Source of the DNA: a virus
Direction: 5' to 3' (one strand)
Length of the DNA stretch: 64,000 bases
Virus record (IMG/VR): IMGVR_UViG_3300045988_138661
A program made the position numbers and the translations under genes. Shown one piece after another: positions 1-63,738 of this stretch (position 1 is its first letter; each line of letters begins with the position of its first letter). The notes below the pieces were generated by a model, which saw only the letters and a list, made by a program, of their open reading frames with translations, searched no databases and was not told the origin of the DNA.

Positions 1-200
1 GTGCCTTGGAAACCAGAACCATTATTACCCCAGCCATTACCGCCCCAACCATTGAAGCAGAATAAGAACAGGATAATAATCCACCATGCTCCGTCTCCCC
101 ACATTCCGCCATCATTATTACGATAGCCATTTCCAGAAGCCGCAGCAATATCAGATAATGAATAATTCGGCGTGCTCATTGGATAATTGTAATTAAACAT
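1..200 (-). CDS. Partial small Gly/Asn/Trp-rich protein with a hydrophobic segment. N-terminal 67 aa visible (MFNYNYPMSTPNYSLSDIAAASGNGYRNNDGGMWGDGAWWIIILFLFCFNGWGGNGWGNNGSGFQG); runs off the window.
   Basis: ATG at 200-198 preceded by SD (gaaagaggttttgttATG). No stop before the window edge. Confidence 0.4.
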   Translation of the reverse strand, partial: MFNYNYPMSTPNYSLSDIAAASGNGYRNNDGGMWGDGAWWIIILFLFCFNGWGGNGWGNNGSGFQG

Positions 201-226
201 AACAAAACCTCTTTCTATAATTTTAT

Positions 227-475
227 TTATTTAAACCCCATTTGGGACTTAAAACTATTGAACTCTTTATCGAAATTCAACCCTCTTGATTCAAACAAAT
301 TACGAGCAAATTTTTCAATGTCATCGGATTGACCGTTCCGTGCCATTCGTAATAAATTATTGCCCATTGGCGTTCCGCCCATTTGATTTTCAAGCATAGA
401 TAAAACTAATTGCTATGGATTTTGACCGTTTTTAATCATAGCAATAATTTGCATTGGATTCATTGATTGTGTCAT
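227..475 (-). CDS. Hypothetical protein, 82 aa (MTQSMNPMQIIAMIKNGQNP-TAG-QLVLSMLENQMGG...), with one in-frame TAG.
   Basis: Hand translation: SD ggagagcttcaaATG, in-frame TAG (plus-strand CTA at 413-415), TAA stop at 229-227. Missed by the ORF track because of the TAG. Confidence 0.5.
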
Positions 476-487
476 TTGAAGCTCTCC

Positions 488-934
488 TTAAAAATTAAAC
501 TGCGGTTTGCTCTCTGCTGGTTGCTATGGAGTTGGCTAATCCGTTCCTTGAGATGGCGCAACCGCGTTATTGGATCCCATGATCTATGCAAATACTTCTT
601 TAATAGAAGTTAAGGTAGTATTAAATTCTTCTCGTGTTATATAGTCATTATTAGGCTAAGAAGAATTTGGGATTTCCTTTAATTCATACATATTGATAGA
701 AGCTGTTCCATCCATATTTATTTGTTTTGTATAAATTCTACGATTAGCATAGTCAGGAAAATAAAAAACTGAACCATCAAAATCTATATTCATAGCTCGA
801 ACCTCTTCTAAAGAAGCAACGGGTCTAATTCGCTATGCAGTACTGTTTTGAATCATAGGTGTAGCAGTTGTTCCATAAATAGGTCTATTATTACCTATTG
901 GATACTACTGCTATGGATAACCATAAGTATTCAT
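488..934 (-). CDS. Hypothetical protein, about 148 aa, with several in-frame TAG.
   Basis: ATG 934-932 with SD (ctccggaggtaataacATG). Frame stays open through CTA triplets to a TAA at 490-488 that overlaps the SD of the next gene. Confidence 0.45.
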
Positions 935-1063
935 GTTATTACCTCCGGAGAAATATAATAATGAAAGGTTTTATCTTTTCCTTTCATTATTATATGACTT
1001 TTATTTTGTGTAAATATATTATAATTACTGACACTTTTTGGATAAAAATTTCACTTACTTAAA

Positions 1064-1125
1064 ATTAAATAAATTTGACACTTTATAATTTTTTATTTTA
1101 CAATATTTAAAAATTTTTGTATAAT
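1064..1125 (+). promoter_or_regulatory. AT-rich promoter region upstream of the LytTR gene (TTGACA-N17-TTACAAT; repeated TGACACTTT motif).
   Basis: ttgacactttataattttttattttacaat, with a second tgtataattataat downstream. Confidence 0.3.
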
Positions 1126-1177
1126 TATAATATAGAAAGAATATAAAGATAGAAAAATTTTTTCTAAAATAAACAAA

Positions 1178-1894
1178 ATGAAGGTGATTAAAATTTTTAT
1201 CGTAGGTATTTGCGACAATAGCGATTAGCAAAATGACTCATTGGAAGAAATAATAAATCAGTATTTTAAAGAATTTAATTTGCCGGGATATATATATAAA
1301 TTTACTGATCCTGGAAAATTAATTGATTCTAATATTGATTATGATGCAATCTTTTTAGGAATTACATTCAAAAACATGGATGGCATTGAAATAGCTCATC
1401 TTTTAAGAACAAATGGGTATATTGGAAAAATAATTTTTGTTTCCTCCCAAATAAATTATGGAGTAGCTTCTTATGAAGTAAAGGCATTTAATTTCGTCAA
1501 AAAACCTGTTAATAAAGAAAAAATTTTTTCTATTTTACATGAAGTTAGAGAAGGAAAAAGACGTGAATATAAATATTTAGATACTCCTAACGGAGAAGTA
1601 AAAATTGATTTAAATAAAGTATTATATGCTGATATCCAAAAACGAAATTTATGTTGTCATTTAGAAAATGAGGTTCTAAATAGTAAAACTTTAAAAACTT
1701 CTTTTGAAAATTATATAGGAACTTTAGTTTATCATCCAGATTTTGTCTTTATCCCACCAAGTTTAATTATTAATTTAAATCAAATTAAAATAATGAATAA
1801 AGACAATTTAACTTTTAGAAATGGTGAAATTTTATACTTTCCTAAAAAAGGTTATGAAGAAATTAATCGACGATGGAAAAATCCATTTAGATAA
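1178..1894 (+). CDS. LytTR-family DNA-binding regulator with a degenerate receiver domain (FLGITF in place of FLDI). The long form starts at ATG 1178 and reads through one in-frame TAG at 1226-1228; the alternative TTG start at 1241 gives 217 aa.
   Basis: C-terminal LytTR-like segment (YADIQKRNLCCHLENEVLNSKTLKTSFENYIGTLVYHPDFVFIPPSLIINLNQI). Upstream in-frame MKVIKIFIVGICDNSD-TAG-QNDSLEE resembles receiver beta1/alpha1. TAA at 1892-1894. Confidence 0.6.
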
Positions 1895-1895
1895 A

Positions 1896-1937
1896 AAAAA
1901 ATAAGGGAGACATTCAATTAAGAATGTCTCCCTTATT
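1896..1937. terminator. Bidirectional intrinsic terminator between the LytTR gene and the leftward genes.
   Basis: aaaaaaaataagggagacattcaattaagaatgtctcccttatttttatt: 13-bp stem flanked by A and T runs. Confidence 0.6.
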
Positions 1938-2034
1938 TTTATTACTTTAAATCATCATTTGGAGTACGATAATTATTTACTGTAGATTCAATCTTTTCTT
2001 GTAAATATTTATTTAAATCGCCAAAAGCATTATT

Positions 2035-2349
2035 TAAATATTCTTTAGCGTCATCGCTTAAAATAAGCAATACCGCTTGATAAGTTCTCTAAAATGCTTC
2101 TTTTTGAGCAGCTTCATCAAACTTGCCTTGTTCTTTAAGAGAATTTACATAAGTTTGATTAGTGGCAATAACACAGTTAGTAATTGTGTCAGTAGCCATT
2201 TGCACATATTTATTTAAAATATCATTGTCAGTTTTCTTTTGTAGTTCTGCACTTTTTGCTTTAATCCAAATAACTATAAAAGTAGTTAAAGCACCAAGCA
2301 TAGGAATCAAGCACACTTGAAATAATTGATTAATCAAATTTTGATCCAT
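2035..2349 (-). CDS. Small membrane protein, holin-like (N-terminal TM helix LFQVCLIPMLGALTTFIVIWI, charged C-terminus), about 104 aa with one TAG.
   Basis: The ORF-track piece 2089..2349 ends at TAG (2089-2091). The frame continues to TAA at 2037-2035. SD aggagataatattATG. Confidence 0.45.
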
Positions 2350-2383
2350 AATATTATCTCCTTTTTCTTACAATAAATTTATA

Positions 2384-3412
2384 TTAAATCCAAGCCACTG
2401 GAACAGGTGTCCAAGTGCCTGTGGTAGAAGTCCTATATTTAAAAGTACCAGTTTTAGCAGTTGTATCTATCCATATTAAAGGCGCGGTGCCAGAAGCAGG
2501 CTATGTAGATCCAATATAAATAGAATAATCAGTAGTAGTTCCAACCGTAGGAGGAGTAGCATTATCAACATATTTTTTAGTTGCTAAATCCATATCTGCT
2601 GTAGGAATATAAGTATTATCCATGGTAATTTTACCATTTGCAGTCATTGTATTAGATTTATTTTTATATACTGCTTGTGTTACATCATCAGGAACAGTTG
2701 CTAATTTATCATCAATTTGTTTAATAGCACTACTTACTTTATTATTAATAGTTATTTCAGCATTATCTACTGCTTCCTAAATCTAAGCAACTTTTTCGTC
2801 TACATTAATTGCGGCGGCTCCTTCAATACCCATAACCGCAAGATAATCATCAGCTTCACTGGTCCAACCATTTAAAGTAATAACTTTTCCTTCAATGGTA
2901 TAATGATCTGTTTCTTTTAACATAATACCATTGTAATATAAAGTTAAAGCACTGCTATCATCAAAATCAAAAGGAATGGTAAATGTATTCTAATTTGCTT
3001 TTGCGGTAAATACATATTTATTTATAGGTTTACTTATTATATTAGTAGGACAAGTAACATTATGCTCAATTCCATTAATATTTATTGTACCAATTTTACT
3101 TCCAGTATCATCAATATTTTCATAAGATACTTCTGACAATTCCGCTAAATTACGTCCGTTTTCATCATAAGTAGCATAATCCGCGTGATCAGTATATAAA
3201 TTTAATCTTTTATCTTTAGTATCAATATAAAATTTATGAGTGTCTTCTGTAAAATAAGCATATCCTTCTGTAATAGGAGTACTGTCTGCTGTTGTAAATA
3301 AAGTTTTTCCTGAATCTAAGGCAGGAAAAGGAATTTTACCATTAACTACTTCAGCATTATCATAGGAAACTAAATTATTTGAGTTTCCTTTTAAAATTTT
3401 AAATAGAGCCAT
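2384..3412 (-). CDS. Putative tail fibre or receptor-binding protein, about 342 aa, with TAG.
   Basis: ORF 2990..3412 with SD ggagttattgaagatcgATG. Same frame continues through CTA triplets to TAA at 2386-2384. Confidence 0.4.
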
Positions 3413-3482
3413 CGATCTTCAATAACTCCTTTCTATAAATTAATGGTATAGAATTAATTAATAATTCTATACCATTTAGTTT

Positions 3483-4107
3483 ATTTATTCAAGAACAATC
3501 CAATAAACATCCAACCCATTACCACCAACAAATCCTTCTAAACGAGCTAAACGCTCCCAAATTTGTTGAACTACTTGGCTATCATCAATTACATAATAAT
3601 CTTCTTCTTTTACAATAGAATCTAAATTGAGCTTAGAATAAATCTAAAGACTTGCTGGCAATGTATTTAAATTATATAATAAATTATTAGAATCTTTTTC
3701 TATTTTGTAAAAAGTTATCATATAATTTAAATTACCAGATTTTTTAGTAGCACTATAATTTAAAACCCAAGGAAAAATAATTTTATCTTTATGAGTTAAA
3801 GTATCATAATATGGAACTGGATAAATACGTTTTTCATTGTCAGCATTAATATACTAAATAATACACATCATATTAGTTAAATCCATAGTGTCAAAATATC
3901 TATCTACTTCAAAATAAATAATTTCAGCAGCATGGTCGCCTTCAACTGTAATATAATTATTTTCATTACTAATAGTCCTTGAATTTAAATTTATCTAAAC
4001 TAATTTTTCATCTTCTGGAGCAGGAAAAGCTGGATATTTTACTGGAAAATTTTCATCTTGTATTTGATGTAAAACGCTATAATAATCAGTTGGATTAGTT
4101 ATCATTT
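3483..4107 (-). CDS. Hypothetical protein, about 208 aa, paralogous to the N-terminal domain of gene 4111..5794 (shared AEIIYFEVDRYFD / AETIYFQIDRYFD block). Candidate fibre chaperone or assembly protein.
   Basis: Hand translation from ATG about 4107 (ggtaaaataaATG) through three TAG to a stop near 3483. Not in the ORF track because of the TAG. Confidence 0.45.
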
Positions 4108-4110
4108 ATT

Positions 4111-5794
4111 TTACCTCTTATATCGTAAGTACTCCTGGCTTTGATTTTCTTTCACCTTTTTTAATAATAACAGCCACTTGAGTAATATTTTCATTTATTT
4201 CTATTGCGTTATTAGTCCCAGAAGTAGTTATTTGAGTAACACCTTCAGCATTTTTCCACTAATATTCATAAATTCCATTTCCTAACTCACTAGTATTAGT
4301 GATATTAACAATATATTTTCCATTTTCAGTTTTTACTTCACCAGTAGGCACTAAATTGATAGGATCAAAATAATTAGTAAAATTAATTGGACCATAATCT
4401 ATATTATCTTTATTTTTATACCCATGAACTGTTAAAGTATAATTATCTTCTTGAGTTAAAGTTACAGTTTTTTCATTGCTAAATTCAGACCCATTCTTTG
4501 TCCAAAGATAAGTACATTGAACTCCTTCATCATTCTACCCAATAGCAGTAATTGTATTAGAAGAGCCATAATAACATCCATTATCAGGAGAGGGATCAAG
4601 AATAATTTTAAAATCTTCACTAATACCTTCCACAACAACACTTAATCCTACCCATTTAACTTCTCTACTTACTTGATTTGCGGTCGTACCATAGGCAGTT
4701 ACACTATAACTTCCGCACCCGTCGACTTCACAATATTGGACTTTTAAATAAAGATCATTCTTTTTAGCAACATAATTCTCAAGATTAATATCGCTACTAC
4801 TATTAATATAAGTATCTCCATTTTTAGTGAAATAAGTCAATTTTTCGTTATAGGCCATATCTCCGCTAAAAATACTATTATCATCAACAATTTTTTTGTA
4901 TTCATAGCCAATACCATTTTTTAATTCAGTATTAGTTCCTCTATAATTACAAATCCATTTATATTCAATAGTAGTATTGTCTGGATTGTTTAAAGTATCA
5001 TTATAAGCTAAAGCATATAATTTATCACCAGTTAAATAAACTGATTTATTATTTAAAATACTTGTCAAGAAAGCCACATTATCAGGGACTCCAAAGCCCG
5101 CAGATTTCTTTGAATCAATTAAACTTTCTAAATACCCAGTTAAATAATCAACAGGTTGCGCGGTAATTAAGTCTTCATCAATGTCTAAAGTTTTATTAAT
5201 AACCATTTGCGCGGGTAATGTATTAAATACATACATTAAATTATTATTATCTTTTGGATTTTTTTTGAAGAAAATAATAGAAAACTATAAAGTACCAGGT
5301 TCACTAGTTACTTCATCACTAATTTGCCAACCAAAAATTAATTTTCCAGCAGTACCAATATCGGGGCAAATAGCTTCAGAATAACCTTGAATTTGATCGT
5401 TCAAATAATACTAAATATAAATTTTAATATCATCAGCTGCTAAATCTTGTAAATCAAAATATCTATCAATTTGGAAATAAATTGTTTCTGCCAAATGATC
5501 ATTTTCAACAGTAAGTAGTTGAGTTTTTCCAAATTCTTTAGTTAATTCAATTTGACGAGTATCAGCATTTATATTTATAATAGGCTCATCTAAGGGTATG
5601 CGAAGAACAGATGGATCTAGTTTCTTCATTTGAACAATACCAGTGATGTTACTATAATAGTCTTCAATAGATTTTATTTCAACGATTTTTCCATTAACGT
5701 TTTTTATTTTATTATCTTTAGCTAAAGTATTAATTTTCTTTTGAAGTTCTTCCCACTTAGCTTGTTCGATAACACTATCATTTTTAACTATCAA
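4111..5794 (-). CDS. Structural, tail-fibre-like protein of about 560 aa. N-terminal domain paralogous to 3483..4107, C-terminal domain Asn/Gly/Tyr-rich. TTG start.
   Basis: ORFs 5411..5794 and 4535..5236 are in the same frame. The gap 5237-5410 was checked codon by codon: only TAG, no TAA or TGA. TTG start 9 nt after SD aaaggaagag, with a TAA immediately upstream. Confidence 0.45.
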
Positions 5795-5804
5795 ATCTAT
5801 CTCT

Positions 5805-5845
5805 TCCTTTCTAAAAAAATTAGGTTAAATAGTTTTTTTCCTATT
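5805..5845. terminator. Hairpin plus T-run terminator (aggttaaatag ttttttt cctatttaacct aatttttttt).
   Basis: Perfect inverted repeat flanked by T or A runs on both strands. Confidence 0.5.
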
Positions 5846-5889
5846 TAACCTAATTTTTTTTATATTTAAATCAATGTATTCTGGCCTAT

Positions 5890-6090
5890 TTAAACCTCAT
5901 ACCATTCTTTTAATTCATTTTCAGGAACTAAAGGAGAGATGGAAAAGAATTCTTTTCCATCTCTTGTTAATTTTTTATTGTAATCTGCTATTAATCTATA
6001 TAAAGTAGTTGCAGGAATTCCTGTTAATTGAATAGAAGATTCAATAATACCATTAGAACCCATATATCTATAAACAATTTCTTTTTCCAT
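5890..6090 (-). CDS. Hypothetical protein, 66 aa, TAG-free.
   Basis: ORF track. SD gaggacaaattATG. Real TAA stop at 5892-5890. Confidence 0.55.
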   Translation of the reverse strand: MEKEIVYRYMGSNGIIESSIQLTGIPATTLYRLIADYNKKLTRDGKEFFSISPLVPENELKEWYEV

Positions 6091-6099
6091 AATTTGTCC

Positions 6100-9000
6100 T
6101 CACTTTACAATAGGCTCTTCTTCAAAATTCGCTCTATTGGATATCATTGCTTCATAAATATTATGTAAAGTATTTTTAACACTTTCACCATAACTAGCCA
6201 CATAATAATATCTAAAACGACCTGTGTATCCATTAGCAACAGTAGGCATACCAGTTTGACGAGGAGTAAAAATATTACCAGAACTATCTGCTGTAATTTG
6301 TTTAATTGGGTGTTTATTAGTACCAATCTATACTTGGATAGCACCAGTATAACCTTTAAACTAATTACCAGACATATTTAAAATTGTCTGGCCAGAAAAT
6401 GCATTTATATCAAAATTAAGAATACCGTCTTTGCATCCCTCTATAATTAAATTATAAGGAGAATAAGAACCCATCTTACTTTGATAAAATGCTTGAGCTC
6501 CAAAAGTCAAACCTTCAGTAGAAGAAGAATAAGGAATTATGTTATTACGGCTTAAAGGACATTGATAAAATGCTTTAGTGCCAATTTTCTTTAAACAATC
6601 ACTAAATTGGAAATATTCTAATCCGCTATCTAAAATAAAGGCATAATCATCTATTACAGAAATTTTATTACTATCTTTTGGAGCAAAGAATATAGCAGTA
6701 ATATTAGGATTTACCTGAATACCAACTGCTGCTGAGGGGTTAACTTGACTATATTTAATTCTTGTAATTGGCTAACCATTATAAGTTGTAGGTAAAGTAA
6801 TTTTGCCTTTTAAATTCTTAGCTAAGTCAGTCATTGCAAATGATAATTCTCCATCAGAGTTTATAATATCATAATATTTATGAGTAGCATCATTAGTTAA
6901 AATATTATCATAAACACTAATCGGCTCTCCAACAGCATAAAATTCGCGGTCAGCATAGGCTAGTTGTTTAGTTAAATCAATTTTAACTCCATCCTTATCC
7001 GCCCATCCCGTCTATCTCCAAGTCCACTCTAATGGGTCTTCGCCTTCTGGTAAATCAGATACTTCTGTATTATTAAAATAATAGAATTCTTTTGGAACAG
7101 TAATTTTTTCACCATAATTAAATACTTTCTTTACAGTTGAATCATTAATAATGCGGTCACCATTAACGAAAGTGATCGTATAAGATTTACGCTCAAATCT
7201 CGCTTTAAAAATATAATCCATTTTATTAGGTTGTAAAGACAAAGAATTCCAATCGCTTTTTAAAACAACGTCTTCTTCATTTACATTTTTTCCAACAGTA
7301 ATTACTAATTCTCCCGTATCATCTTCCCAACCTTTAAAATCATAAGTTGGCATTTTTTCTTGTAAGCTACCAAAAGAAATATAAGTTTCACTAGAAGAAT
7401 TTGTTGGATCATCAAAGAATTCACTGCTAGATAAGGGTAATTTCTAAGTTTTTAGAACCTCCTAAATTAACACTCCATCAATATCTTCTTTTTCTAAAAT
7501 AAACTTGGCAGAACATTCTTGTTTAACGTTTTCTACAAAAATTATTAAATCAGGGTATTTATTCTATAACTCAGTCTAGATAATAGATTCATCAATCTAA
7601 TTATTATTTTTTATATACATAACACCAGATATTTCTGGCTTATTAGTATTAAGACCCCTATAATTATTATAAATATCAATTAATAAATTATAATCAGTTA
7701 TTATACTATGATTATTATTGTCTCCATTTATTGTATCTAAATAATAAATCTGATTATTTTTAATATCAGATTTTGTTATTTTATTAACCTAATCTTTTGG
7801 AATAGCTACCAACTAAAAATGTCCATTATCTCTATAATAAGATTTTCTTTCTGGATCAAGAGTTGTTTTAGTGTCAGTCAGAAGTCTATATGGACTCCAC
7901 TAAACATTATTTAAATTAATAATACAATTAGATAAATCTAATTTACTATTTTTACTAGCTGAAATATATTTGCGTAATAATTTATAACTATTATAGCCTA
8001 AATTGCCACCTCGAATATCAAAAGTTCTTATCTCAGTTTTTTCTTTTCCTTCTTCAGCATCGGTAAGACCTTGAATATATAAACCACGATTTTCATCTAA
8101 AATCTCAAGTTTTCCAGTAATCGGATTTTTTTTAGGATATACATAATTAGTTATTAATTTCGTTAATAAATTAGCTTCTATTAAACTTAAATAATTTGTT
8201 CGATTAGTTAAATATAAAGTATTTAAAGCTACTCCAGGAGCGAAATTAACTCTCGGAATATTAGATTTAGTATTTCTAAAGTTTTCAAGTTTTTCACTTT
8301 TAGTTAAATCTAATGCACCCTAGTCTTTTTTAAAGTTAATATTACAAAGATTCATTTCTTTAAGTAAAGGCATTCCACCTTTTGGGAAGGACCAGTCATT
8401 TACATCATTATTAAAATATTCATTACCGCTTTCATCTTTTCCATCATATCCTAATAATAAATCAGTTAAACGCTCCATTTTTCCTTCAGCTGCAAACTCT
8501 TGGAAATATAATTTACTTAAATCACCAAGGGATTTCATTTGATCCATTCCATAAATATAATATAATTGTTCTTTATAATTACCGCTACTCATAATTCCTT
8601 TTTTAATATCAGGAGCTACATATTTAACCGGTTCTAAACCATTATATTTTTTTGAAGGAAAATTTTCTCCATCTGTACCAATAGTAACATAGGCATTACG
8701 CGCGGGTTCCATGTTGATCCAATATTCACCATCAAACATATGATTTTTTTCTTCGAATTCAGCACCATTTTTCCAATACTGAGAATTTGTAATTAATCCT
8801 TCCATATTTTGAGTGTTAGTACCTTCAATCCATTTATCTGATGTATTCTTAGGATTGTTCGCGGAAATACGACTTCTAATATAGCTTCCTCCACCGTTTC
8901 TGGCATAAGTGCCAACAGTCAACCAAGAGTCAATGTAATTAAGACGATTAGCTAAAAATTGCGCGCGATAAAGATTTCTATCTCCTTGCAAAGCATAAAA

Positions 9001-12000
9001 ATATTTATCATCTTCAACCTCATATGAACCTCCATCAGTTAAACGGCCAAATACTGGCATATTTTCAGCTTTAGAATTTGTTGGAATAATATATTTAAAT
9101 TCTTCATCTAAGCTTAAAGCAATAATTGGTCGATCTCCTAAAGCGGCATAACTATCAAGAAATACTGATGGATCAGTACGATACCATTTATCTACAATAT
9201 CGCTCTTTTTAGCCCCTGCTCCTGCGCCTTTAGTAAAAATTTTATTTACTCTTGAATCATTTGGGCTATAAGAATTATTTTGAGTTCCCATTAATTGCTT
9301 ATATTTATCTACCATTTTATTCTTAAAGAAAGTATAAAAATTATTCCAAAGAACACTATCATTAGTCGAAAAACTTCCTTCTTCAGTAGCATCAATATAA
9401 TATTCAAAAGATGGGATACCGGTATTATTAATACCTAGTTGAGTATCAATATCATAAAAGATAGGATACCAAATATAATGCTATTTACCGGTAGATTTTT
9501 GAACATTGCCTTTTTGCGGACCCCAAGAAGCAAACATTGCATTTTTTCCACGAGAATCATAACATTCAAAAATTTCCGTCATCAAAAGATAAGAAGCCAA
9601 ATATTCGATATCAAAGAAATTACTTAATTCATTTTTAAATTTAGCTTGACGGTATTCTTTACTATCTTTAGTATAAGTAATAGAATCATAAGTTACTGGT
9701 TTAGGCAATCTCCATCTTTCATCAATAAGATCTTCATTTTTAACAAAAGAATAATAATCTAAAGAAGAATTAAATTTATCAGAACTTAATACATAAATTT
9801 CATTTTTACTATCAACTAAAAGGTAGTAAGTATTTGTTTTATATACTTTACTCAAATCATTTGTAAGTTTTATACTTATATAATTTACTTTATTATTTTC
9901 ATTAATCTATTTATAATACCTTAATTCAGGATTATAATCTTCAGAAGCTAATTTATAAATAATTTTTCCATCTTTATTAACCCCATCTTCGATGTAATAT
10001 TCATTAGGGGTGTATATAGCTGCTGCAAGTCCTTCAACTTTAGTATAAGTACCCATAGATTGAAGCTCTAATTTCTATCCATCCTCAAACTCAATCTTAC
10101 CACAATCTAAACAGGTACTCCATACCCAACTAACTGCATCTTCCCAGTTAGACATTAAAGCTAAGAGCAATTCTTGTTTACTTGTATTATTACCAACATT
10201 AAATTCTATTTCTTCTCCATCTGGATTTTTTATAATCCATTTAATAGATTTTACACCAGTAATTTCATCAATTATTTCTTTTTTAATAAGCCTATCAGGA
10301 GCTACATTTTTTAATTCTTCTCCAACAATCTTAGTCTATGTTCCATCTGGGTCATCCCAGTCTTTTAAATTAAATAACTATTCAGCAATTAAATCATCAT
10401 TTGGATTATATCTTGGTTCAAAAGAATCAACAACTTTTGGAGCGCCTTTAACTAATTCAGGATTATCTCCATCTGGAGGAATTACCATATTAGGATTCCT
10501 AAATGATAATTTATAACGATTCCAAGGGTCGCGGAAAGAACAATATGTTCTTGAATTATTCTAAAATTCCCAACATTCAGCAATATCTCTTACTTTTGGA
10601 GTTCCATTAATTTGATTCTATAAAACCTTTTTATCAGGCTTAAATCCATAGCATTCATCTGACCCTTTGTCTAATAGCATATTATATTTACCAATAAAAA
10701 TACAATTACTGCTATTTTCTTTAGAATATGTATTATCATCATTAGACATATAATGGAAAGCTAAAACTGGGAATCCTTTCACTGAAGTACGATAATCTTC
10801 TAAATTTCCATATAAATTATAATTATCAAAAGAATCTTTATAATCTTCTACGGGATGTTTAGAATAAATTTCATTAACTAAATTAGCAAACCCTCTATTA
10901 TAATCTCCTGAAGATTCCATAAAATCTATTTTTAAAGTAAACTTAGTAGTACCAACTGTTTTATTATCCATATAAAACCATTCTAAATAACAAGGATGTT
11001 TAGTTATATCTTCATTATACTAATCTCCTGCTTTTTTATAAGCCTCAGCAAATGGGCCTCTATTTAAAAGCATTGATTTTTTACATTTAGCCTTATAATT
11101 ACGACGAGGATAAAATTGTGAAGAAGTGCCTTGGACTTGAAAAGTACATCCATTAAGAACAGTTATAAAACTAGGGCAATGATGTATATAATAATTCTAT
11201 ACAGCAGTATATTTTATTGTTTCTATCCCAGTCTCTTTATTTTTTTCAATTACAGGTTTCCATCCTTCTTTTATAGCAACTTTTTCTAATTCGCCACTAT
11301 TATAAGCAGCATCTAAAGCCGTATTAACAAATTCTAAAGTTCCTTCCTAACTTCCTTTTGCTTTAGAATAAGGTAATCTATTATCTGTGTTGTTTTTATT
11401 ATTTTTAGTAGTTCTTAAAATAATATAAGGCATTAAAGGATCAGTAGGATGATTATCATTATACTTTTTCATTTTAGTATAAGAGAATACATCATCTTTT
11501 AATACCGTGTTATTCTCGTAAAGGTCTTTTTGATCCCATTGTTTTATACTTCTTTTATCAAAAGCATAATTTTGGACTATTTCAGGAATAGTTAAATCTG
11601 TATCATAAACTCTAATACTATAAATATCAATATCACAAGTATTAGACATAAATTTAATGGAATCAGAATCAATATTCCAAACATCACTATTACAACGTAC
11701 AACACTAGTTAAAACGCCATTCATAAAAATTTCTAATAATTTAGAATTTCCGCCTTCTATATCGCTTTTCTTTTTAGTATAAACAAATGAAAGATTTAGC
11801 ATTTCATTTTCAATAAAATCAACTGAAACTGTTTCTTGAGCGCCATTAGCCGTAAATACAGCATCCTATGGACTAAAATAAATACCAGGAGAAACGGAAC
11901 TTCCTAATTTACCATACACACAAACTAAATTCTTTAAATTAAAATCTTGTTCTATTTTATTATACTCTAAATCATCATAACTATAATTAGTTGTCGGTAA

Positions 12001-55722: not shown

Positions 55723-55776
55723 AAAACTTCTCTTTTTTTATAAAAAACACTTGACAAATCCAACAGCCGGTGCTAT

Positions 55777-55925
55777 ACTATAATTGTCAAGAGGGGAAGA
55801 GATAAGTTACTTCCCAAAGGGTGTGTGGCAAGTAGCCATTTCCTTTGATAAAACGCTTAGTTGGAGCGACCAGACAGGGCGCGCACTGTCCGCAAAAGTA
55901 GAGAATAAAAAAATTCCAACTTCTC
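55777..55925 (+). ncRNA. Candidate non-coding transcript from promoter 55751-55776; begins UGUCAAGAGG and contains hairpins.
   Basis: No credible ORF (track ORF 55784..56023 runs across the next promoter). Stem gggaag/cttccc and gacag-ggcgcgca-ctgtc. Confidence 0.3.
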
Positions 55926-56104
55926 AAAAAAACCTCTTGACAGACCCCTTAGAGTGTGATACAATAAGGATGTCAAGAGGCAGACAGGAGCGAACAACCT
56001 CTCCCCAATGCGTAGTTGGGTGAAGTAAAACAAAATCTCCCTACCGAACAAAAAAGTTCAAAAAACCTCTTGACAAACCCCTTAGAGTGTGATACAATAA
56101 GGGT
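55924..56104 (+). repeat. Tandem duplication of a 44-bp promoter unit (aaaaacctcttgacaNaccccttagagtgtgatacaataagg) at 55924-55967 and 56061-56104.
   Basis: Near-identical copies. The first is followed by AUGUCAAGAGG..., the second by the tRNA-like element. Confidence 0.6.
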
Positions 56105-56110
56105 ACAGAT

Positions 56111-56222
56111 GGCGGTGAGGTAGAACGGTTCTACTTCCACAAAGATGGCTGAGATACAAAAGTGTCGCTCACTTGGAAACGTTCGCTATTGGAAAATGTG
56201 GGTTCAACTCCCACCACCGCCT
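56111..56222 (+). tRNA. tRNA-like element of 113 nt: 7-bp acceptor stem (GGCGGTG/CACCGCC), D-arm (GTAG-AACGGTT-CTAC) and canonical T-arm (GTGGG-TTCAACT-CCCAC). Has an insertion of about 40 nt in the anticodon region, so either an atypical or intron-containing tRNA, or a tRNA-like RNA.
   Basis: Arms identified by hand. Possible anticodon stem 56136-56140 / 56189-56193 enclosing the insert. The promoter places the TSS about 5 nt upstream. Length is atypical and the anticodon is unresolved. Confidence 0.45.
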
Positions 56223-56302
56223 CAAAATTTTTTGAAAAAACACTTGACAAATCCAAAAGTAGATGTTATAATGTAGATACAATAAGAAAGGGGATAAAAA
56301 CC

Positions 56303-56566
56303 ATGACTACTTACAACATTCTCACTATTGGCCCTTCTCGTGAACCGAAGCTCGCGGGCAAGTTCAACGTTGCGGATACTGAAAACTTCCTTGACCGGTT
56401 AGAGGAAACGCTCTACATTCTCTTTGAATTAGAGCCGAAATCCCGCGAATGGAAACGCGAATTTCTCAAACATCTTTTTGCGGAATTCACTTATCACTTT
56501 TGCGAAGATTCCCGCGTTGAAAAGCAAGGCAACAATATTATCGTTTATGAAGAAAATGAGGGCTGA
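56303..56566 (+). CDS. Hypothetical protein, 87 aa (MTTYNILTIGPSREPK...).
   Basis: Promoter cacttgacaaatccaaaagtagatgttataat. RBS aaaggggataaaaaccATG. Terminator gggctgaaaaagccc plus T8. Confidence 0.6.
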   Translation: MTTYNILTIGPSREPKLAGKFNVADTENFLDRLEETLYILFELEPKSREWKREFLKHLFAEFTYHFCEDSRVEKQGNNIIVYEENEG

Positions 56567-58934: not shown

Positions 58935-59036
58935 TAATCATGTCAAGAGGAAGTGGTAAGCCTCTTGAAGTAGTGAACAAATTTCTCATACTATGGTTTG
59001 CGCGGTAGCCGATAATTACCGCGCCCTTTCTATTTC
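58935..59036 (+). ncRNA. Candidate small RNA or leaderless micro-ORF transcript. Starts AUGUCAAGAGG, has a 5-prime hairpin caagagg/cctcttg and a terminator gcgcggta-gccgataat-taccgcgc plus T-run.
   Basis: Promoter ctattgacaaactcaccccgttgtggtattataat immediately upstream. A possible 22-aa leaderless ORF (MSRGSGKPLEVVNKFLILWFAR) ends at TAG. Confidence 0.3.
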
Positions 59037-62077: not shown

Positions 62078-62530
62078 ATGAAAGCTACTGGTATCGTTCG
62101 CAGAATTGATGACCTTGGACGTGTGGTCATTCCGAAAGAGATTCGCCGGACTTTGAAGATCCGCGAGGGCGACCCGCTTGAAATCTTCCTTGGAGAGGAC
62201 AACTGCGTTTGCTTCAAGAGGTATTCAGTGCTTGGTTCGTTGACCGAAGAGGCTCTGCGAACCGCTATTACAATGGCGTCAAATTCCGGTCTACGCCCTA
62301 TCGCAATTTATGATACTACTGTAAAACTGCGGGGCATGGAAAACTTTTCGGCCTATGTCCCGACCCAGTGGGAATTTGAAAGAAAGCCATTTGTTTTCAA
62401 TAATACCTATGGCGTTTATCCGGTTTGCGCGGACGGCGACCTTGTGGGTTATGCGGTTTGCGACCAGCAAGACATGGGGTGTGAAATGGACATGATTGTT
62501 CGCTACCTCAGCATTGTGTCTGAACGTTAA
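62078..62530 (+). CDS. AbrB/SpoVT-family transcriptional regulator, 150 aa (N-terminal swapped-hairpin domain MKATGIVRRIDDLGRVVIPKEIRRTLKIREGDPLEIF).
   Basis: The N-terminus matches the hallmark AbrB/Abh/SpoVT N-domain almost residue for residue. Own promoter and RBS. Confidence 0.75.
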   Translation: MKATGIVRRIDDLGRVVIPKEIRRTLKIREGDPLEIFLGEDNCVCFKRYSVLGSLTEEALRTAITMASNSGLRPIAIYDTTVKLRGMENFSAYVPTQWEFERKPFVFNNTYGVYPVCADGDLVGYAVCDQQDMGCEMDMIVRYLSIVSER

Positions 62531-63237: not shown

Positions 63238-63738
63238 ATGAAAATCACTTACATCAAGTCTCACGTTGTGACCACTCGACGCTCTATCAACTTTGACATG
63301 GACGGCACTATCGCTGACCTCTACGGCGTCAAGGATTGGCTCGCGCTTCTCCGTTCGGAAAATCCCACACCCTATCGGACTGCCGCTCCTATGTGCGATA
63401 TGGCTGAATTGAATGAGGTTTGCGAACTTCTCCGCGCCGAGGGTTGGGAAATCAACATCATCACTTGGCTTTCCAAAGATTCGAGCGAGGAATACAAAAA
63501 CCTCGTGCGTAAAGCAAAGCGTGCGTGGCTTGAAGAACAGGGCTTCCACTATGACCACTTCCACGGCGTCCAGTATGGCGCGACCAAAGCCGACAGCGTG
63601 CGCGACCGCTATGACGTGTCCATCTTGGTTGACGATAATGAAAAGGTTCGGAATGGTTGGCACTTGGGCGCTACCATTGACCCGACCGCAGTAAACATTA
63701 TCGAAAAACTTTCGGAACTTTTGGAGAAAAGGGCTTGA
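63238..63738 (+). CDS. HAD-superfamily 5-prime(3-prime)-deoxyribonucleotidase-like protein (NT5C-type; FDMDGTIAD motif I), 166 aa.
   Basis: DxDGT motif near the N-terminus and a size typical of the NT5C family. Promoter attgacaaaatacagcaaatgcgctataat. Confidence 0.55.
   Translation: MKITYIKSHVVTTRRSINFDMDGTIADLYGVKDWLALLRSENPTPYRTAAPMCDMAELNEVCELLRAEGWEINIITWLSKDSSEEYKNLVRKAKRAWLEEQGFHYDHFHGVQYGATKADSVRDRYDVSILVDDNEKVRNGWHLGATIDPTAVNIIEKLSELLEKRA

Follow-up and report, generated by a model that had tools for sequence, protein, structure and literature searches.

A tRNA-shaped RNA gene with a conserved, structured replacement of the anticodon loop in the early arm of a TAG-recoded gut phage

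The IMG/VR virus record IMGVR_UViG_3300045988_138661 was analyzed over a stretch of 64,000 nucleotides (nt; this whole stretch is referred to as the window), in whose early arm a transfer RNA (tRNA)-like element with a long insertion in place of the anticodon loop is encoded. The Rfam tRNA model RF00005 matched the plus strand at 56111-56222 with 37.0 bits (gathering score 29; E=3.7e-4 for the search of the whole window with all families); the alignment spans the full model (positions 1-71) and contains a 50-nt insertion between the two anticodon-stem halves. An earlier note on this DNA, based on inspection of the letters, had already placed an element here and described a perfect 7-bp acceptor stem, a D arm and a textbook T arm; all three are read directly from the sequence and are included in the RF00005 match, so that the Infernal-type search suggested there agrees with the reading by eye. 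Its dimensions require correction, as the length is 112 nt counting the discriminator (not 113 nt) and the extra insert comprises about 44-50 nt (not about 40 nt). Within the 64 kb this is the sole tRNA-like match (Rfam: one at gathering level; ARAGORN: no tRNA or transfer-messenger RNA (tmRNA)), in agreement with the former statement that no other tRNA-like structure was visible.

The element is composed of a 5' part (GGCGGTG AG GTAG AACGGTT CTAC TTCCA), an insert (CAAAG ATGGC T GAG ATACAA AAGTG TCGCT CACTT GGAAACG TTC GCTAT) and a 3' part (TGGAA AAT GTGGG TTCAACT CCCAC CACCGCC T); the coordinates of its structural features are compiled in Table 1. The minimum-free-energy fold of the element strand is an extended cloverleaf (-39 kcal/mol; z=-3.6 versus dinucleotide shuffles). 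In place of the usual 7-nt anticodon loop, an arm extends from stem A through a 5-nt bulge and stem B to an internal loop of invariant sequence (AUAC.A / GGAAACG) and is capped by a distal hairpin whose loop is UCGC.

A strong sigma-70-type promoter directly upstream of the element, as had been noticed before, was confirmed (Table 1); its spacing suggests a transcription start near 56105 and thus a leader of about 6 nt. The promoter was also thought to be tandemly duplicated: a second copy is indeed present at 55937-55965 and reads identically over about 43 nt except for one base, but it drives another small unit and not another copy of the element. The same promoter precedes the element in L127, L075, L001 and L082 (handles of loci with homologues, see below), i.e. 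in five genomes including the window, and is present as a single copy in L127. The 11-kb early arm is dense in near-perfect sigma-70 promoters, of which it contains about two dozen. In L075, an extra G+C-rich segment of about 95 nt (minus strand, roughly 1494-1590) separates promoter and element within the same transcription unit; in consequence, the element RNA must be cut from a longer transcript there.

Table 1. Positions of the tRNA-like element, its structural parts and associated features (window coordinates unless a locus handle is given).
Feature	Position	Strand	Remarks
tRNA-like RNA gene, whole	56111..56222	+	112 nt including discriminator T at 56222; no encoded CCA
Acceptor stem, 5' strand GGCGGTG	56111..56117	+	pairs with 56215-56221 (CACCGCC); 7 perfect pairs, five with compensatory changes across the family
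D arm GTAG AACGGTT CTAC	56120..56134	+	GG in loop; preceded by A8 G9
Stem A, 5' strand TTCCA	56135..56139	+	anticodon-stem equivalent; pairs with 56190-56194 (TGGAA); U-A to C-G at two pairs
One-sided 5-nt bulge CAAAG (consensus xxAAG)	56140..56144	+	from family alignment
Stem B, 5' strand ATGGC, bulged T, GAG	56145..56153	+	pairs with 56182-56189 (TTC GCTAT); three pairs compensated
Conserved core module GC-U-GAGAUAC ... distal hairpin ... U-GGAAACGUUC-GC	56148..56186	+	invariant alignment columns
Distal hairpin, stem C AAGTG/CACTT, loop TCGCT	56160..56174	+	two pairs with compensatory changes
T arm GTGGG TTCAACT CCCAC	56198..56214	+	three pairs with compensatory changes
Sigma-70-type promoter TTGACA, 17 nt, TACAAT, extended TG	56070..56098	+	11/12 consensus match
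Accessory cassette with element	55757..56220	+	blastn break points versus L292-L303; about 465 bp; also contains two small promoter-driven units
HAD-like gene, window copy	63238-63738	+	
HAD-like gene, L001	L001:2-286	-	
HAD-like gene, L082	L082:1603-2043	+	
HAD-like gene, L123	L123:3700-4152	-	
HAD-like gene, L134	L134:30051-30485	-	

Homologues were retrieved by exact-pattern scans with the insert core from IMG/VR, the JGI/ENA metagenomes and one set of species-representative genomes, and were filtered for the tRNA frame; 11 sequences were aligned. About ten distinct homologues were obtained on phage contigs from gut metagenomes: the window type (window, L075, L127), the L001 type (L001, identical to L036, and L082), the singletons L062, L068 (5' end cut), L033 and L123 (contig binned to a Bacteroidales metagenome-assembled genome), and the V2 type with about 30 near-identical copies on gut phage contigs of about 150 kb. 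The acceptor stem varies fully in the alignment and nevertheless stays paired (GGCGGUG, GCAAGUA, GGUGAUA), and the same holds for the T stem. The three helices of the insert all change with compensation; for stem B, the variants AUGGC/GCCAU, AAGGC/GCCUU, AAAGC/GCUUU, UCUGC/GCAGA and UCGGC/GCCGA were found. In total, 94.3% of the alignment cells are paired as compared to 44-50% if the partners are slid by 1-3 columns; both-sided changes occur at 16 pairs, and the observed covariation score was reached in none of 500 shuffles. An independent RNAalifold run returned the same structure with 17 compensated pairs.

Amid these covarying helices of the insert lies an invariant core (GCUGAGAUAC ... UGGAAACGUUCGC). 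The strands GCUGAGAUAC and GGAAACGUUCGC (the latter extended by a U two bases upstream), which flank the internal loop, are identical in 11/11 aligned members, as are the core-module strands GCTGAGATAC and GGAAACGTTCGC; the distal loop reads UCGC(U/A) in all members but L033 (CUCAUUA). The nucleotides of the tRNA elbow, i.e. GG in the D loop and TTCRA in the T loop, are kept across the family, while A8 is present instead of the usual U8 in at least 90% of the aligned members. CCA is encoded in the V2, L033 and L062 members. The invariant 3' core strand includes a 6-nt palindrome (AACGUU, 56178-56183) that could in principle mediate dimerization but may be due to chance.

The family covariance model (R1) scores the window element with 131 bits and finds one copy in the window. 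The insert has no counterpart in Rfam 15 even at E<=5 (scan of the early arm), a scan of eight member loci at gathering scores gave nothing on the insert either, and no family member was present in 50,697 GenBank phage records. The element is therefore a conserved RNA gene with a tRNA frame in which a structured arm under selection takes the place of the anticodon loop, and belongs to a covariation-supported family of tRNA-like phage RNAs that is absent from Rfam 15 and from the GenBank phage records searched. New is this RNA family; tRNA-like non-coding RNAs as a kind are already known.

The phage encoding the element (G+C content of the window 32%) is recoded. On the minus strand of 1-52800, readthrough of TAG lifts the longest open reading frame (ORF) from 555 to 2760 amino acids and nearly doubles the summed ORF length, which readthrough of TGA does not; the long late ORFs contain 14.9 TAG, 3.4 CAG and 24.5 CAA per 1000 codons. 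The plus-strand early arm from 52800 onwards has no in-frame TAG and shows normal CAG use. This coding pattern is that of code 15 (TAG = Gln), confined to the late genes. The structural proteins match virion families of PHROG, and the closest GenBank relative by tblastn is Phage Phass-1 (OQ749652, "Caudoviricetes code 15 clade"), followed by Enterococcus and Bacillus phages of about 135-160 kb; a crAss-like identity was rejected as the relatives are Phass-1 and large Firmicutes phages. The relationship to Enterococcus and Bacillus phages fits the consensus sigma-70 promoters, and Clostridia hosts have been proposed for phAss-1 (PMC10607447). The segment 53238-64000 is 100% identical to a stretch of a 190,948-bp human-gut metagenome scaffold (ENA ERZ28595197 scaffold_23).

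TAG recoding together with the lack of any other tRNA in the window had led to the proposal that the element is the amber suppressor tRNA of this phage, which would read UAG in the late genes either directly or after removal of an intron. The probability of this explanation is considered close to negligible. The sole CTA of the element (56186-56188) is CCA in the near-identical L075 and L127 and contributes a G-U/G-C pair to stem B. ARAGORN, for which an intron setting had been recommended in the earlier note, gave no call in 8/8 members at default thresholds with or without introns; at 80% thresholds it gave mutually inconsistent ACU, UUC, CGC, AGA and UAC calls, never CUA. Virtual splicing, in which all internal deletions of 20-62 nt (about 1,500 per member) were re-run in ARAGORN, resulted in CUA in 0/8 members and in no anticodon common to all; CGC, derived from the invariant UUCGC, alone recurred.

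The distribution of the element likewise speaks against a suppressor function. Close relatives were found via two window proteins (one of them is 94.5% nucleotide-identical to window positions 15-11890); in 12/12 of their early-region loci the element was not within ±10 kb of the syntenic neighbor gene, although 11 of these contigs are TAG-recoded (TAG readthrough lifts the longest ORF from 206-528 to about 1900 amino acids). Five close-relative contigs (161-197 kb) carry a canonical 90-nt tRNA(CUA) with a long variable arm in a tRNA array. Phass-1 possesses three annotated tRNA-Sup-CTA genes with normal CUCUAAA loops besides about 35 other tRNAs and lacks the element, since R1 scores only ordinary tRNAs there (27 bits at most). 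Conversely, the element is present in unrelated phages of about 150 kb (V2 type) whose local stop-codon use looks standard (TAG ends 14/170 ORFs), and thus its presence does not track TAG recoding. The suppressor tRNAs of code-15 phages, e.g. those of Phass-1 and the 90-nt tRNA(CUA) of contig IMGVR_UViG_3300045988_126669, belong to the same clade of TAG-recoded gut phages but differ by their CUCUAAA loop and by their location in tRNA arrays that lie in a different module of the genome; the element lacks CUA, and recoding does not require it.

Collinearity with contig IMGVR_UViG_3300045988_126669 would place its tRNA(CUA) about 47 kb to the right of the window; no tRNA was found in the adjoining 9.7 kb on this side. 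Most likely, TAG decoding of this phage rests on an ordinary tRNA(CUA) outside of the window, as in its closest relatives, from which we infer the canonical suppressor in its own genome. The suppressor reading of the earlier note is consequently refuted, as no model yields CUA and relatives carry tRNA(CUA) elsewhere without the element near the syntenic site. Besides removing a false lead for this phage, the result cautions against annotating a covariance-model tRNA match in a recoded phage as a suppressor if it contains a large anticodon insertion. In L191 (7726-7805; contig IMGVR_UViG_3300045988_110853), ARAGORN reported an 80-nt tRNA with TCA anticodon ("SeC") near the tRNA(CUA), which may be an opal suppressor or a false call.

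The recurrence of CGC in virtual splicing (5/8 members) and its appearance among the relaxed ARAGORN calls raise the question whether the element is a tRNA that decodes after loss of a novel short intron: if about 41 nt immediately 5' of the invariant UUCGC were excised, a 7-nt loop UUCGCNN would result with anticodon CGC that reads GCG, which is the top Ala codon in the early arm (26 per 1000 versus 7.6 per 1000 in the late genes). Genes for an RNA ligase and a polynucleotide kinase are present in the V2 phages, and introns of eukaryotic and archaeal pre-tRNAs pair with the anticodon loop, so that the covariation of stem B would be compatible with an intron. However, the 44-50-nt insert is far too short for a group I core (usually >200 nt, P3-P9), and neither an intron nor a ribozyme is among the Rfam matches listed at E<=5. 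Most members would have U or C at position 37, which is a purine in nearly all tRNAs; C:G, A:U or U:A stands in the place of the Ala identity pair G3:U70, and acceptor stems and discriminators differ between lineages. Moreover, the invariant core reaches well past what an intron would need, and three members give no tRNA call under any deletion. We know of no bacterial mechanism for a tRNA intron of about 41 nt at position 31/32. An intron-containing tRNA is hence regarded as highly unlikely; among the options once listed (intron-containing or otherwise atypical tRNA, or tRNA-like RNA), the tRNA-like RNA stands, as a conserved structured gene with its own promoter, whereas the intron finds little support, because the insert is too small for group I and no excision leads to an anticodon loop that would be both plausible and consistent.

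An RNA in the manner of a miniature tmRNA or Y RNA, active in ribosome rescue or RNA quality control, had also to be taken into account, since the only overlapping Rfam match listed at E<=5 is that of tmRNA, contributed by the two ends of the element. A8 is shared with the tmRNA of E. coli. Modules of Ro and Y RNA with tRNA-like RNA occur in RNA-repair contexts of phages (PMC7824862). The match to RF00023, the model that was to be searched according to the earlier proposal, amounts however to 16.8 bits and stays below the gathering score of 47; 112 nt leave no room for a tag reading frame or pseudoknots, and G3:U70 is missing. The topology is opposite to that of YrlA, in which the 5' and 3' ends form the Ro-binding stem and the acceptor end is the closed one (PMC4201824), as the ends of the element form the acceptor stem; no Ro/TROVE match was obtained among the proteins scanned near the element. 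This possibility is thus rated as very improbable, only marginally above the suppressor. In a wider sense, tmRNA and YrlA resemble the element in that the acceptor/T-arm elbow is kept and the anticodon arm swapped for another functional helix; tmRNA differs by its length of about 350 nt, its reading frame and G3:U70, YrlA by its reverse topology and its need for Ro, and neither model matches the element. Inspection by eye also gave no fit to known small motifs: a hammerhead was rejected because of CUGAGAU in place of CUGANGA and only two helices at the junction, and hepatitis delta virus (HDV)-like and theta ribozymes, the kink-turn (K-turn) and the sarcin-ricin motif were discarded as well.

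The element might furthermore be a degenerate tRNA relic with a functionless insert, kept as a processing or punctuation signal for RNase P/Z or as a transcript stabilizer of adjacent early RNAs. Consistent with such a function, no terminator-like site was seen from the element to the following gene (56303-56566), and in L075 the element follows another structured segment in one transcription unit. In contrast, the 38-nt invariant core and the compensation in three insert helices were retained while acceptor and T stems diverged completely, and the element has either its own promoter or a place among tRNAs where punctuation already exists. A relic is accordingly judged unlikely, though less so than an intron-containing tRNA.

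Compared with canonical tRNA (RF00005), the element shares the 7-bp acceptor stem, the 4-bp D stem with GG loop, the 5-bp T stem with TTCRAxT loop and the discriminator, and in some members also the encoded CCA and, in two lineages, the location in a tRNA array. It deviates in that the 7-nt anticodon loop (U33, purine 37) is absent and a conserved structured arm of 51 nt is present instead, that A8 substitutes for U8, that ARAGORN remains silent and that the V2 copies are not listed at the Rfam threshold. The element joins a small set of RNAs from tRNA clusters such as rnaC and rnaD of T4 (species 1 and species 2 RNAs), whose function is still unknown (PMC9697503); shared features are a small RNA coded with tRNAs, a tRNA-type T arm and 3' end, and a length exceeding that of tRNA. 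Homology to rnaC, suggested by shared words in a probe sequence, was rejected: R1 gives 14.8 bits over the T arm only, rnaC folds into different long hairpins, and the words in common with the core (GGAACGUUCGG and GAGAUAU) lie in plain helices in rnaC, which is thus an analogue and not a homologue.

The closest parallel in design is artificial. Engineered tRNAs with a replaced anticodon arm (the "tRNA scaffold" of Ponchon and Dardel) yield stable, correctly processed and nuclease-resistant chimeric RNAs in bacteria (PMC3753655); as in the element, acceptor, D and T arms are kept and a hairpin-closed insert takes the place of the anticodon stem-loop, whereas the element is natural, conserved and selected. 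Based on this behavior of the engineered molecules, the tRNA frame of the element probably supplies processing and stability. We therefore lean towards the view, with somewhat better than even confidence, that the locus gives rise to a small RNA which is shaped like a tRNA but does not decode, and which belongs to a phage RNA family not described so far. The RNA would be transcribed in quantity, here from the near-consensus early promoter and in other phages as part of a tRNA array; host enzymes of tRNA maturation (RNase P, 3' trimming, CCA addition) would excise and stabilize it, so that the tRNA frame would act as a natural scaffold leading to a stable, abundant RNA. Such maturation into a stable full-length species is predicted from the leader (about 6 nt; about 100 nt in L075), the encoded CCA and the array position. 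The invariant module of about 38 nt on the long arm would be the working part that binds a host or phage factor. If so, phages would naturally use, in this family, a design that RNA engineers invented; anything beyond the structure is to be read as proposal.

Several points weigh against this non-decoding scaffold. The family is small, with about 10 distinct sequences in 3-4 lineages, and the invariance of the core partly reflects relatedness. Enzymes acting on tRNA might recognize the RNA less well owing to A8 in place of U8 and to the CCA that most window-type copies do not encode, and the V2 copy is not among the matches reaching the Rfam tRNA gathering score. No partner was identified among the proteins scanned near the element, and the RNA could conceivably still act in translation after some processing.

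The genomic settings suggest in which process the RNA might act. Homology of the window to its element-less relatives ends at about 55756 and restarts at about 56220-56228, with both break points within repeated terminator/promoter modules. The absence from 12 close relatives, the break points at repeated promoter modules and the presence in unrelated phages of about 150 kb indicate that the element belongs to an accessory, apparently horizontally mobile cassette among early host-takeover genes. In the V2 phages, its neighbors within a tRNA array are tRNA-Thr on one side and an over-long "tRNA-Phe" call on the other, and TCCA adjoins its 3' end; in L033, which encodes CCA, tRNA genes are present on both flanks. 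A few kb from the V2 array, an RNA-repair-like set consisting of RNA ligase, polynucleotide-kinase-like P-loop kinase and nucleotidyltransferase adjoins primase and helicase genes. Because of the early, accessory and mobile cassette and the association with tRNA arrays and RNA-repair genes, a role in the conflict over host tRNA or translation, as decoy, sponge or adaptor, is put forward as a guess. Equally tentative is the more specific proposal that a tRNA body serves as scaffold for an effector of about 38 nt in a mobile promoter-plus-RNA cassette, directed as decoy, sponge or adaptor at a host factor handling tRNA; candidate targets are, for example, a tRNA-targeting defense nuclease, a toxin modifying tRNA 3' ends or a translation factor. 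In view of its accessory nature, its near-consensus early promoter and the company of tRNA arrays and RNA-repair genes elsewhere, the element appears to be a tractable candidate for an RNA-based factor of host takeover or counter-defense.

No protein gene was specifically linked to the element across the member loci. The early regions of the clade repeatedly encode a small HAD-like protein (FDMDGTIAD...NTLARKLN; Table 1). Encoded directly downstream of the element in L001, L082 and L123, it was considered as a partner and rejected, since it also occurs 7 kb away from the element in the window, in element-less relatives and in Phass-1.

Further features accompany the V2 arrays. At L004:5435-10100, and in the same manner in other V2 loci, a class-V aminotransferase, an RNA ligase (PF09414 and PF21189), a nucleotidyltransferase (weak RlaP match, phrog_388) and a polynucleotide-kinase-like P-loop kinase are encoded. 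The arrays contain additional over-long tRNA calls with odd anticodon regions, namely 90-91-nt "Ile(tat)", "Gly(gcc)" and "Tyr(ata)" and, at L017:5354-5445 with equivalents in other V2 loci, a 92-nt "tRNA-Phe(gaa)" (43 bits with the Rfam tRNA model); they are candidates for additional tRNA-like RNAs that contain insertions. A skipping-rope RNA (RF02924, 77.9 bits) is located at L017:4669-4748 in the V2 tRNA array, one gene upstream of the neighborhood of the element. Genes of mobile elements were observed in and around the arrays (L096:2084-3358 (-), L015:71-1078 (+) and L014:12126-12935 (-)), comprising a TnpB-like protein (Cas12f1-like TNB domain), a GIY-YIG SegE-like endonuclease and an HNH endonuclease.

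Upstream of the element, two small promoter-driven units are present at about 55786-55941 and 55972-56074 (+), which start with GUCAAGAGG and finish with CCUCUUGAC; CCUCUUGAC overlaps the -35 region of the following promoter and forms with GUCAAGAGG a 9-bp terminal inverted repeat. In L082, the ends of the small unit are GUCAAGGGG...CCCCUUGAC, i.e. a compensatory change. The sequence GTCAAGAGG occurs 6 times in the window (0.11 expected), and the small-unit repeat was also found at window positions 58942 and 60860 as well as upstream of the element in L001 and L082. The units may represent small RNAs whose ends pair in a terminal stem; alternatively, they may mark a cassette boundary at the DNA level. 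Pairing of the element with the two units was rejected by eye (7-nt matches without compensatory change). The extra segment of L075 reads GGGUGGGCCGGCG...CGCAUCCGCCACCC, has complementary ends and gave no Rfam match at gathering level. Elsewhere in the window, the left edge of the late block encodes a response-regulator receiver-domain protein (1280-1894 (+); PF00072 on a 98.5%-identical copy in L260), and the early arm a MazE/AbrB-type antitoxin-like protein (62078-62530 (+); PF04014).

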